DNA of 42,619 bases from a virus, in the IMG/VR virus record IMGVR_UViG_3300001528_001028, positions 1-42,619 of that record. The stretch is one strand, 5' to 3'. The position numbers and the translations under genes are program-made. Below are positions 30,963 through 34,176 of the stretch, in pieces. The number at the start of each line of letters is the position of its first letter. Within the stretch, counting starts at the first letter, position 1. The notes under the pieces were generated by a model. The model saw only the letters and a list, made by a program, of their open reading frames with translations. It searched no databases and was not told where the DNA came from.

Positions 30963-32948
30963 TCAAATCCCCAAATCGCCCATCACTGGGCTTCCCTCCA
31001 CAAAATGCCGAATCGGCTTGCCGTACTGGTCGCGAAACTGCTTCGAGCGCACGTCAAACCAAACCTGCTTGTACGCCAATTCGCCCGTCCCGTTGCGCTG
31101 CTTGCCCACAAAGAACGTCGCGTCCGCCTCCGTCTGAATGCTCTTCCAATTATCGCCAATCATTCGGGCGCGCTCCATTCGCTCCGTCTTGGAAATGTTG
31201 CGCCATACGATAACCACGTTGTGAGCCAAGTCTGTTATGGACTTCGAACCCGAAACGTCGTATTTCGTCGGCGGGTTTTTGTCCTCGCGCCGCTTGTCGT
31301 TGGGCTTTTTCGCGTGGGCTACAACAAACAAATGGCAGTCGAACTCGATTACAAACTTCGCGAGCTTCTGCATTACCTTTTTGACGGAATCCAAATCGTC
31401 CTCGGCAATGTCCAAACACATTACGGAGTCCAGACAGAACAAACGCACGCCGTAGCGGCGCGCCGCATACGAGAACACCTCTATCACGTCGTCGATTCGC
31501 GCAACGCCCACACAGTCGTAGAACAGAAAATACTGCTCCAAAAAGTCGAACGCATTTTGGCGCAAGCCCGCAATCGGGTATCCCTCCTCCGTGAAGTCGT
31601 CCTTGCGCCCCGCAGTCTGACACCAAAGCGAATAAAGCGTCTTGTCTATCGGCACTTCAAGGGACGCAATGCACGCCCGCTCGCCGCCCTCCACACAAAG
31701 GTTCAAGAGCAAATCGTTCAGCCATTCCGTCTTGCCGTGCCCAGAATATCCCGAAACCACCGTAAGCTCGCCGTTGCGAATCCTGAAATGGTCGCCCAAA
31801 TTCCACGGCATCTTGCGCCCGATGTAAGCCTGCTTGCCGTCGAGCCTGTCCCAAAGCTTCTGCTTGTAGTCCGAGGGACGCTTCAACTGAATCGGGTCAA
31901 TAGCCCTGCTGCAATCAACGGCATTTTTGATGTAGTCGGGATTGTCCAAGAGCAGGTCGTTCGGGTCTTTCGCGGGCGCGGGAATCTCCACAAGCTCGCA
32001 CCTATGCGCACCCAAACGGCGGTAGAGAGTCTGCGCGGCGGCTTTGCCCACCTCGTCGTTGTCCATACAGATTTTTATCCGCTCGAAACGCGAGAGCCGC
32101 TCCCAGTCGTTGTCAATCCATTGGTTGGCGGCGTTCACCTTGCCGTCGGCGGAGTCCGCGTGAGCACCCTGCGGAACTGAAACTGCATTGTATCCGCACA
32201 TCGCAACACTCATCGCGTCGATTTCGCCCTCGCAAATTACAAGCTCGCTCGCGTCGTCGTCGATAGCCTGCCAACCCCATAAGTGGCAAGTGCCGTTCGG
32301 GTCTTGCGAACATTCCTTGTTTCCCTTTGCGTTGCGCTCCACCGCAATGTACTTGACGTTTAGCACCTGCGCCTTGTCGCCCTTGCAACTCCACACGGGA
32401 AAGGCAATCGCGGGCACTTCCTTTCCGAAGCCGCCGAACCACCTGTTGCACTGCTGAACCCTGTATTTGCGGAGAACTTCGGGGGTAAGACCGCGCTTTT
32501 CCGTGAGATAGCGGAATACTTCCGAATCCTCGGTAAGCGGAAACAAATGCTTTACGGCGATTTTCCGAACGTCCTTGTCGCTCTTGGCGGTTTCCGAAAC
32601 CTTGTAGCGGTAGTCCGACGGAGAGGAAATTCCCAGCCAGTCCCGCGCAAATTTCACCGCCTGCGGATAGGTCATTTGGCGTTGCGCCATAATGATGTTG
32701 ACAATCGAGCCGCACTTGCGCCCGCCGTCGGCAGGCTCGCCGTTCTCGAACCATAAACCGCAATTTCTCGCGTCGGAATCGTCAATGTTTACCACAAACG
32801 AATCGCCGCCCCTGTTCGAATCCAAAATGTCCGAAGCACACCAATACTTGCCCTTGCGCTTGCCGTTGGGCAGGAACTGCATACAAAACTGCAAAGCCCG
32901 CCTGTTGAGCGCGTCGGTTATCTGCCTGAAATCCGAAGCAACAGCCAT
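30963..32948 (-). CDS. Bifunctional primase-helicase (TOPRIM plus DnaB/T7-gp4-like), 661 aa
   Basis: TOPRIM motifs LVICEGEIDAMS and DNDEVGKAAA. Walker A GYSGHGKTEW. Walker B LFCLDSVM. Start at MAVASDF preceded by gaggtg. Confidence 0.8.
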   Translation of the reverse strand: MAVASDFRQITDALNRRALQFCMQFLPNGKRKGKYWCASDILDSNRGGDSFVVNIDDSDARNCGLWFENGEPADGGRKCGSIVNIIMAQRQMTYPQAVKFARDWLGISSPSDYRYKVSETAKSDKDVRKIAVKHLFPLTEDSEVFRYLTEKRGLTPEVLRKYRVQQCNRWFGGFGKEVPAIAFPVWSCKGDKAQVLNVKYIAVERNAKGNKECSQDPNGTCHLWGWQAIDDDASELVICEGEIDAMSVAMCGYNAVSVPQGAHADSADGKVNAANQWIDNDWERLSRFERIKICMDNDEVGKAAAQTLYRRLGAHRCELVEIPAPAKDPNDLLLDNPDYIKNAVDCSRAIDPIQLKRPSDYKQKLWDRLDGKQAYIGRKMPWNLGDHFRIRNGELTVVSGYSGHGKTEWLNDLLLNLCVEGGERACIASLEVPIDKTLYSLWCQTAGRKDDFTEEGYPIAGLRQNAFDFLEQYFLFYDCVGVARIDDVIEVFSYAARRYGVRLFCLDSVMCLDIAEDDLDSVKKVMQKLAKFVIEFDCHLFVVAHAKKPNDKRREDKNPPTKYDVSGSKSITDLAHNVVIVWRNISKTERMERARMIGDNWKSIQTEADATFFVGKQRNGTGELAYKQVWFDVRSKQFRDQYGKPIRHFVEGSPVMGDLGI

Positions 32949-32956
32949 CACACACC

Positions 32957-33943
32957 TCACATTCCGACGGAGGGTTCTTCGTTCTGCCACGCGCCCAACG
33001 GAACACCGAGAGGGGCGGGCGCGGAGTTTTTATTGAATTTTTTTTCGCCCGAAGCCTTCTTTTTTAGGATTTCCTCGTCGAAACACCAATCCTGCCACTC
33101 CCTCGCCATCGACTTGTCGAACATTTCCAAGACCTGCTCCACGGAAAGCCCGTCAACGTCTATGCAGTCGGCTACACGCTTTCCGTGCCTGCGCGCGGTT
33201 TCGGGCTTAATGGGCTTGCGCTTGACCGTCTTGCGGTACTCCACCCACTCGGCAAACTTGTCTTGAAGCCGCTTTATGCCCTCGGGAGAAAGCTCCGCAC
33301 CCAAATTTTCGTCCAATCCCAATTTGAAATTTTCCGCACAAGCCACCCTAAGGGGGGTTGGGGGGGTTAATATCTTATCTATCTTATCTATCTTATCTAT
33401 CGCTTGGGGGGTTGCTTGGGCACTGCTTGGGCACTGCTCGGGCACTGCTTCACCACCGCTTGGGCACTGCTTGGGCAGTGCTTCGTCTTCGCTTGTGTCC
33501 CGCTCGGTCTTCGTTTCCGTTTCGCTTGCCGTTCGCTTATGCTTCGCTTGCCCATCGCTTCCGCTTCGCTTGCCTTTCGCTTGGGTAGAGCTTGGGCACT
33601 GCTTGCCCTTTGCTTCGCTCGCCTTTCTGTCGCCGTTTTTCCAACATACGAACAGAGAGCGGTTTACCTCTGCATAGTCGTGAAGACGCACAAGATTCTG
33701 GAAGTTCTCCTCGTCTTCGCCAAGCTCTTCTATAAGGTTCAGCTCCAAGAGAGAGCTAAAAAACAGCCCTTTTTGCCCTTGAAACTTGGCGATTGCCTCC
33801 AACTGTCTTTTCGGGAGCAAGTCCGATTTTCTGATTTGGGCAAACGCCCAAAGACGGAGCAGACACCGCAAAGCCGATTCGCCGCAAGACAAGATGAGGG
33901 CTTCGATTTTCCAGTGGTCGGGTAAGTCGGTTTCGATAATCAT
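32957..33943 (-). CDS. Replication initiator/organizer-like protein with an embedded repeat array (328 aa)
   Basis: Position directly upstream of the primase-helicase, central disordered linker, start at MIIETDLPDH (ATGA overlap upstream). Confidence 0.4.
   Translation of the reverse strand: MIIETDLPDHWKIEALILSCGESALRCLLRLWAFAQIRKSDLLPKRQLEAIAKFQGQKGLFFSSLLELNLIEELGEDEENFQNLVRLHDYAEVNRSLFVCWKNGDRKASEAKGKQCPSSTQAKGKRSGSDGQAKHKRTASETETKTERDTSEDEALPKQCPSGGEAVPEQCPSSAQATPQAIDKIDKIDKILTPPTPLRVACAENFKLGLDENLGAELSPEGIKRLQDKFAEWVEYRKTVKRKPIKPETARRHGKRVADCIDVDGLSVEQVLEMFDKSMAREWQDWCFDEEILKKKASGEKKFNKNSAPAPLGVPLGAWQNEEPSVGM
33372..33622. repeat. Candidate origin/centromere array: 3.3 x atcttatct (33372-33401) followed by 19 phased 11-bp units (33414-33622)
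   Basis: GCTT/GCTC/GTTT recurs at exact 11-bp steps from 33414 to 33612. The best unit is gcttgggcact. Confidence 0.6.
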
Positions 33944-34176
33944 TTCGAAGCCCTCCCGTCGTCGATTATGTCGCAGAACGAAACTACGGCAAGCAGTACA
34001 ATGGAAGACATTCCGCAAACAACCACCGTGCCGAGACACAACGCGGAACATACGTTAAGGAAGTTCGGACTGGTAATGAACGCCGCGGCAACCAGAAACC
34101 CGACCGTCGCAATAATCGCGACAAGGAAAAGGTACAACGCCGAACGCAGGAGTATGATTTCGGTTTCGCGCGACAT
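33940..34176 (-). CDS. Small two-pass membrane protein (78 aa)
   Basis: Two hydrophobic segments. Overlaps of the TAATG and ATGA kind with its neighbours. Confidence 0.5.
   Translation of the reverse strand: MSRETEIILLRSALYLFLVAIIATVGFLVAAAFITSPNFLNVCSALCLGTVVVCGMSSIVLLAVVSFCDIIDDGRASK

Follow-up and report, generated by a model that had tools for sequence, protein, structure and literature searches.

Phage lambda has its origin of replication, made of iterons with an AT-rich region, midway along gene O, and the number of sites varies among relatives, so that an O protein encoded with more iterons gains residues and changes in length (PMC7466680). In lambda, as in P22 (gene 18) and the Stx phages, the origin falls between the N-terminal DNA-binding domain and the C-terminal recruiting domain of the initiator, the AT-rich region stands on one side of the repeated initiator sites, and the helicase or its loader comes from the gene that follows. 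A matching layout was found in the viral DNA described here, the IMG/VR virus record IMGVR_UViG_3300001528_001028, whose whole stretch of 42,619 nucleotides is hereafter called the window. On its minus strand a putative replication initiator gene of 328 amino acids (aa) (32957-33943, protein start MIIETD) contains a putative iteron array of 20 short direct repeats (33402-33622) and, next to it, an AT-rich 9-mer array that is a putative DNA-unwinding element (33371-33401). As the anatomy of ori-lambda is matched, we read 33371-33622 as the phage origin, a new variant of the lambda-O type embedded in the initiator gene, and give this reading a probability of about 0.65. We infer both the protein that binds the repeats and the start of replication at the array. 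An earlier note on this DNA, made from the letters alone, had proposed an origin or a centromere and had named the lambda origin inside gene O among its precedents; this proved to be the right one.

The likeness to ori-lambda has its limits. Lambda has four to six imperfect inverted iterons of ~19 bp, each bound by an O dimer, whereas the window has 19-21 direct repeats with a 7-bp core, spaced by exactly 11 bp and read in three frames. No sequence similarity to lambda O was detected, no Pfam family (Phage_rep_O included) being matched by the window protein or by 47 members of its family, and the partner is a T7-gp4-like primase-helicase where lambda has a P-type loader for the host DnaB. Short direct-repeat initiator sites (11-12 bp) beside an AT-rich region are also found in oriCII of Vibrio cholerae, the origin of RctB, where binding is cooperative and both spacing and helical phasing matter (PMC4551981). 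However, oriCII-min has six 12-mers with Dam sites, needs a DnaA box, is intergenic and chromosomal and has an unrelated initiator. In the origins of the Staphylococcus aureus pathogenicity islands (SaPI), which use the self-loading helicases Rep or PriRep, a winged helix reads short iterons of 5-6 bp in 6-12 copies, which go with an AT-rich region in a replication module of the primase/helicase kind (PMC9371898). There the iterons lie downstream of rep, on both sides of the AT-rich region and in opposite directions, and the winged helix is within the helicase.

In parC of plasmid R1 the proteins bound to 11-bp direct repeats lie on one face of the helix and build a cooperative superhelical nucleoprotein filament. 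This site differs from the window in having ten repeats placed in a promoter and in serving segregation through a ribbon-helix-helix (RHH) protein and an actin-like ATPase, neither of which partners was found here. The 'bind' locus of pMV158 RepB likewise has 11-bp direct repeats and a one-face cooperative superhelical filament (PMC1851628, PMC9943647), although there the repeats are three and the initiator is a rolling-circle HUH protein, with no such partner in the window.

The repeat array and its periodicity

On the plus strand 19 units follow each other in exact 11-bp register from 33414 to 33612, with GCTT as the anchor (GCTC in two units and GTTT in one), and a terminal GCTT unit at 33402 breaks this register with an offset of 12 bp. 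The unit on the coding (minus) strand is composed of a 7-nt core, AAGCGAA (TTCGCTT on the plus strand), and a variable 4-nt spacer. The 19 units and the exact step that the earlier note had given were confirmed. Tandem Repeats Finder (TRF) reported period-11 arrays at 33413-33483, 33521-33583 and 33579-33605, and the autocorrelation analysis which had been suggested as a check gave, for the bases of 33403-33622, 0.64 at lags 11, 22, 33 and 44, with ~0.2-0.3 at most other lags and weaker signals of 0.35-0.39 at lags of ~5-6 plus multiples of 11. At lags of up to 40 this is the strongest periodicity of the 42.6-kb window (0.65 vs 0.262 +/- 0.039 over 78,440 window/lag combinations), the runner-up reaching 0.47.

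The best unit, GCTTGGGCACT, occurs six times in the window with at most one mismatch, each time within the array as had been claimed, while 0.57 occurrences are expected and none of 100 shuffles reached six. A sub-type, AAGCAGTGCCC, makes up six or seven of the units. The units are imperfect, and strand asymmetry is strong in the array, with T at only 12 of 220 bases of the coding strand. In a scan of the window the paired pattern AAGCGAA-N4-AAGCGAA was restricted to the array save for one match with two mismatches at 37745, and a second array with the same motifs was not found anywhere in the window.

The AT-rich 9-mer array directly adjoins the last repeat, also as the earlier note had it. 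TRF described it as ATCTTATCT in 3.4 copies of 100% identity (33371-33401); its GC content is 20%, and on the coding strand the unit is GATAAGATA and encodes IDKIDKIDK. According to the stability calculation, the least stable 30-mer of 32001-35000 starts at 33367 (-28.2 kcal/mol, vs a window mean of -43.1 +/- 4.1), and 33371-33400 (-28.9 kcal/mol) is within the least stable 0.03% of all 30-mers of the window. An easily melted AT-rich region thus stands on one side of the repeats, as in origins of the lambda type, and distant relatives carry GATA/GAGA purine tracts at the same position. On the side opposite the repeats the tract is flanked by a G6-TT-G7 run (33352-33366), which reads as C-runs on the coding strand and encodes TPPTP; orthologues carry similar runs. 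The 9-mer was also considered as a DnaA box and set aside, as TTATCTATC and TTATCCACA agree by eye at only 6 of 9 positions.

A repeat within a gene may be dictated by the protein, and the earlier note had argued that in this case it is a property of the DNA. Four tests upheld this. In the first, synonymous resampling, the amino-acid sequence was kept and the codons were redrawn from local codon usage (2000 draws): the lag-11 autocorrelation fell to 0.34-0.36 +/- 0.03, with a maximum of 0.49, against 0.65-0.71 observed in the window and five orthologues, and the in-register AAGC counts were 13-18 observed vs 4-6 expected. For the codon-phase test 116 units from six loci were stacked on the coding strand. 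Whichever of the three codon phases was taken, and at third positions as well, the AAGCGAA core held ~1.0-2.0 bits per position, whereas the 4-nt spacer held ~0.3-1.0 bits per position. In the third test, three orthologous 21-unit arrays diverged by 0.03-0.07 per site in the core and by 0.21-0.29 in the spacer, and at third codon positions by 0.027 and 0.286, respectively; from one orthologue to another, change in the core is about one sixth of that in the spacer.

The core is translated as K-R, x-S-E or Q/E-A-K according to codon phase, and because the same DNA word is read in three frames the protein shows only an 11-aa pseudo-period. The fourth test was of copy number: the arrays hold 15-21 units, and homologues come in lengths of 280, 302, 313, 324 and 335 aa, with steps of 11 aa that correspond to three units. 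In an alignment of 19 sequences the lengths differ almost entirely by such whole steps, and none of the full-length homologues is frameshifted. Since in-frame slippage by three units cannot keep the phases alike, a core common to them calls for selection at the level of the DNA. What purifying selection maintains here is a periodicity of the DNA itself.

These tests bear directly on the possibility that the array has no function as DNA, being a slippage-prone low-complexity linker whose period is a by-product, or a phase-variable contingency tract by which frameshifts turn the gene off. Copy number does vary among relatives, the length of the unit is not divisible by 3, and the T-poor coding strand would tend to make stops in the forward frames less likely. 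Nevertheless, the core is the same in all three codon phases, which slippage by three units cannot homogenise, and the periodicity is far above what the protein sequence imposes and persists in clades with ~30% identity in the N-domain. Moreover, the full-length homologues differ by triplets of units without frameshifts, and imperfect units disfavour slippage. This explanation is largely refuted by the resampling, codon-phase and orthologue tests, and we regard it as highly improbable. Of its variants, both a pure protein-level repeat and phase variation were rejected by the first two tests, and a phase-variable contingency locus also on the imperfect units and on the lengths, which change almost entirely in 11-aa steps.

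The putative initiator, its relatives and its neighbours

The start of the initiator gene was set at 33943 by the family alignment, in which M1 is invariant; an upstream ATG at 34051 was ruled out by the same alignment. The protein consists of a winged-helix-like N-domain (residues 1-105, 33629-33943), a disordered linker to residue ~191 and a helical C-domain (198-298), and the array, which encodes residues ~105-185, is placed between the two domains as in origins of the lambda type. In the AlphaFold2 models residues 10-90 are arranged as helix-helix-strand-helix-helix-strand-strand (domain-only model, with a predicted local distance difference test score (pLDDT) of 78.5 and a predicted template modelling score of 0.69), and the C-domain is confidently predicted as helical. 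The array-encoded linker, residues 95-191, has a pLDDT below 50, which agrees with the earlier description of an 11-aa pseudo-period in a disordered linker. Nearly all the leading Foldseek matches of the N-domain are winged-helix proteins (MarR, ScpB, HxlR, ArsR-type, TubR and the winged helix of ORC/Cdc6); the full-length model gave weak winged-helix matches only, and the N-domain-only model gave the same fold class. The models therefore support the winged-helix fold class for the N-domain and single out no specific relative. The locus does not conform to the iteron plasmids (Rep_3/RepA), where iterons of 17-22 bp are spaced by about 22 bp and bound by a Rep protein with two winged helices: it differs in its 11-bp period, its 7-bp core and the single winged-helix-like domain of the model, and the Rep_3 family was not matched by the window protein in Pfam.

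A profile search found 3,412 clusters of relatives (at 50% identity), of which 512 reach an E of 1e-30 or better, and the overall plan of the window is retained in IMG/VR loci whose N-domains are only 27-36% identical. Family members have a conserved N-domain, a short linker, a TDRE/EKIEK tract and then one of several unrelated C-domains. Residues M1, H10, W11, K12, W32, N94 and G104 are invariant across 47 diverse members, to which alignments of 31 sequences add D9, R30, L31, Q36, R38, K39, W101 and N103; the window N-domain aligns to those of the family with 20 invariant residues. It is also the family that supports the earlier description of the gene as initiator-like: 40 of the 47 diverse members, drawn from the family as defined by a hidden Markov model, match PHROG 9474 ('replication initiation protein', best E 8e-37), and the C-domains of the family match families named 'replication initiation O-like', 'primosomal protein', 'DnaD-like helicase loader' and 'replisome organizer'. 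The window protein itself has no Pfam or PHROG match.

The abrupt change to unrelated C-domain types, right after the TDRE/EKIEK tract, would suit another explanation, in which the array and the GATA tract form a module junction or recombination hotspot that promotes the exchange of initiator modules, the repeats being kept for the sake of mosaicism. This leaves the strict 11-bp phasing unexplained, and likewise the 7-bp core with its free 4-bp spacer and the six-fold stronger conservation of the former. Shuffling is, moreover, expected anyway at a linker between domains. We consider such a role quite unlikely as the reason for the array, although it may be one of its side effects.

The periodicity is conserved in the homologous genes of relatives, a point on which the earlier note had made its reading depend. 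Lag 11 was the best lag in the linker DNA of 10 of 13 N-domain clusters, and 8 of these exceeded all 1000 synonymous resamples. The linkers of the relatives have ~8-10 units with the core (A/T)AACCCA at each 11 bp, ending in AACCGATA and followed by a purine tract, GATAAGAGAAGAG; AACCCA read across three frames gives the protein motifs NP, ETH/ETQ and xP of the family. Some clades (L068/L069, at about nt 326-385 of the gene, L005 and L002) have instead a 12-bp in-frame array, GATAACCCACGG in four copies, with NPRD/NPRV repeats in the protein, so the core of the relatives occurs at two phasings, 11-bp and 12-bp. In L002 the observed value was reached by 506 of 1000 resamples, the DNA and protein signals being inseparable in clades with the 12-bp in-frame array. 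The nearest outgroup of the window clade, L012 (36-41% identity), carries AAACCCAA and then GATAGATAAGACAGATAAGACAGATAGA. As this outgroup keeps AAACCCAA, the window clade has switched its core to AAGCGAA, which has AA-C in common with AACCCA. Its copy number is also about twice as high, and the KGGRPKK motif has been lost.

The architecture of array plus tract is thus conserved across a very large initiator family, and this matters for a further alternative, that of a regulatory or titration array with the true origin elsewhere. The repeats would then be sites bound by the initiator or another phage protein, and would either control the expression of the replication operon, through autorepression or a roadblock, or limit initiation by titration or handcuffing in the manner of inc arrays. 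A selected DNA-level array is all that is actually shown, and control arrays are common in iteron replicons; the 11-mers of oriCII's inc region regulate negatively (PMC4551981). On the other hand, the array directly adjoins the least stable DNA of the region, there is no second array with the same motifs in the window, and the pairing of array and tract is family-wide, as expected of an origin composed of iterons and an unwinding element. The conserved juxtaposition favours an origin over a control array, and we hold the latter to be unlikely, if less so than the other alternatives treated here.

Immediately downstream of the initiator gene is a primase-helicase gene (30963-32948, minus strand), as the earlier note had stated. 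It has the Toprim and DnaB_C domains of Pfam and matches phrog_239 with an E of 6e-91, and by comparison with orthologues of 661 aa its probable start is 9 nt past the initiator stop codon. This primase-helicase is the likely client of the origin. In the distant relatives L004 and L006 a DnaB-like helicase gene (DnaB_C, E 1e-73) also directly follows the family gene. An initiator gene followed by one for a helicase or helicase loader is the order known from lambda-type origins. Cultured phages that share the C-domain type of the distant family member L024, which is not that of the window protein, have the gene order cI, cro, this gene, a P-like or DnaC-like loader and ninB. Their gene occupies the slot of lambda O and has short repeats in its middle too; the full-length L024 matches in these phages cover the C-domain only.

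The neighbourhood also decided the fate of the centromere half of the earlier proposal. The origin half was strengthened by the initiator family, the helicase synteny and the easily melted tract. The centromere half supposed a partition site like parC of R1, where a small DNA-binding protein coats the repeats and couples the phage DNA to a segregation motor; the ten 11-bp repeats of parC speak for it, and TubR, a winged-helix centromere binder, is among the weak Foldseek matches. However, no ATPase of the ParA, ParM or TubZ type was found among the open reading frames (ORFs) scanned. The two RHH proteins said to lie nearby were not borne out, as ORF 34176-35006 has no Pfam or PHROG match and ORF 36706-37026 has only a sub-threshold NikA-like match (21.5 bits against a cut-off of 27), which leaves no RHH match above threshold in either. 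Furthermore, the array is coding and lies inside a gene always linked to a helicase gene, with no par operon or par promoter, and the phage has an integrase and chromosomally integrated relatives, for which a centromere is unnecessary. The centromere was rejected on these grounds, and we attach a very low probability to it.

How the putative origin might work

If 33371-33622 is the origin, its working can be pictured in four steps. The winged-helix-like N-domain of the 328-aa protein would bind the 7-bp cores head to tail. As the 11-bp spacing is about one helical turn, the bound proteins would be placed on one face of the DNA and could form a cooperative filament over ~220 bp; the excess of 0.5 bp per unit over 10.5 bp per turn would amount to about one superhelical turn across ~21 units. 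The strain of this complex would open the adjoining tract of three GATAAGATA units, the least stable DNA nearby. Finally, the helical C-domain may recruit the primase-helicase, encoded 9 nt downstream, to the opened strands.

Several points weigh against this reading. The 328-aa protein had no match in Pfam, PHROGs, the PDB sequences or a PDB profile search, and none at E of 0.01 or better among the PHROG profiles, PHROG 9474 included, so its identity as an initiator is suggested indirectly, through its relatives alone. The winged-helix matches of Foldseek are weak (E 0.03-0.2, template modelling scores 0.35-0.5), and the helix found where the recognition helix usually lies (residues 58-67) is rather hydrophobic, which makes the DNA-contacting surface hard to place. 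The window clade has kept all the invariant residues of the N-domain although its core differs from that of the relatives (AAGCGAA vs AACCCA). A simple model in which the protein reads the core is awkward for this reason, though AA-C is common to both cores. No characterised lambda-type origin resembles a set of 19 to 21 sites of 7 bp, and the GC skew has no clear inflection at the array and is uninformative as evidence of an origin. In addition, a tblastn search of INPHARED (50,697 phage records) with three family members found the N-domain in no cultured phage.

An origin within an initiator gene is of a kind already known. What is new here is the three-frame, one-turn-phased design and the breadth of its distribution. 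One could go further and see in it a distinct architecture, in which the initiator, a winged-helix monomer, would assemble head to tail over 8-21 minimal sites of 7 bp, one per helical turn, into a continuous superhelical filament like that of ParR on parC, in thousands of uncultured phage lineages. Such a filament would melt the adjacent purine-rich GATA tract and load the helicase. As the binding code would extend across all three frames of the linker, the origin would dictate the protein sequence (KR / xS / QA here and NP / ETH / xP elsewhere), and for the same reason changes in copy number would be limited to triplets of sites. We put this forward as a doubtful extension of the lambda-type reading.

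Confirmation of the lambda-type origin would provide a sequence signature by which origins could be located across uncultured phages and prophages that form a very large group. The locus would also be a clean natural case of overlapping codes, with an array selected in all three frames of one gene for what is presumably protein binding. The array shapes the 11-aa pseudo-repeat of the disordered linker and forces expansions of three sites at once. If the reading is true, lambda-type origins are extended towards arrays that form filaments and have a site at each helical turn, which to our knowledge have so far been found mainly in plasmid centromeres. Searches of the literature returned no description of the family, nor of origin repeats read in three frames. 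When cultured phages were searched at the DNA and protein level, neither the locus nor the window protein was matched, nor were two N-domains of the family, and a scan of GTDB genomes for the initiator gene found no relative.

Other features of the phage

The window represents a temperate phage with a major head protein, an adaptor/portal-like protein, an integrase and an ORF of 2364 aa. Close relatives occur as integrated elements of bacterial contigs (119 and 607 kb). Insertion sites vary among relatives: in L011 the prophage is ~1.5 kb from cas1-cas2 of the host contig (L011 6976-8271), and in L016 it is beside restriction-modification and Vsr genes. A flanking gene for GlnRS was used to look for the host; its best match, of only 64% identity, is in a metagenome-assembled genome of the Verrucomicrobiales. 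The 2364-aa ORF (1092-8186, minus strand) corresponds to a giant gene of the relatives that matches the LPD3 and LPD38 polyvalent-protein domains, which is unusual cargo for a temperate phage of 42 kb.

The stop codon of a gene for a hydrophobic protein of 78 aa (33940-34176, minus strand) overlaps the initiator start (ATGA), and the position of this gene is kept in all close relatives. Two genes upstream of the initiator gene, ORF 34176-35006 (minus strand) contains a 102-bp tandem repeat in four copies of 90% identity (34478-34883) that encodes a 34-aa unit (NSAVREKLVDEGVLLGN..DGSRRVLGGSA); the gene at this position in relatives encodes 222-280 aa. Inside the same ORF there is on the plus strand (34345-34377) an inverted repeat with a 15-bp stem, CCGCGCGGATAG TTA TCC TGATTATCCGCGCGG, which a consensus scan described as terminator-like. 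A transposase gene of the IS1595 family (35200-35907, plus strand; DDE_Tnp_IS1595, E 6e-25) stands where the minus-strand block of genes switches to the plus strand, and the 64%-GC stretch after it (36000-36700) is crowded with overlapping ORFs on both strands.

An intergenic element of ~170-230 nt recurs among the late genes in at least five copies (10796-10965, 16918-17149, 17702-17886, 20367-20550 and 25649-25838), with possible further copies near 12848, 13613, 14231, 26329, 27098 and 30599. The element has an arm of ~35 nt with the 7-mer AACGTAG about five times, a conserved core of ~115 nt and an inverted arm with CTACGTT five times. It gave no Rfam or tRNA match and could be a structured RNA, a repeat resembling a miniature inverted-repeat transposable element, or a regulatory cassette. 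RNAalifold predicted 62 pairs for its minus strand, 8 of them with two-sided changes, and in the copy at 10796 both arms have changed jointly, to AACGAAG and CTTCGTT.

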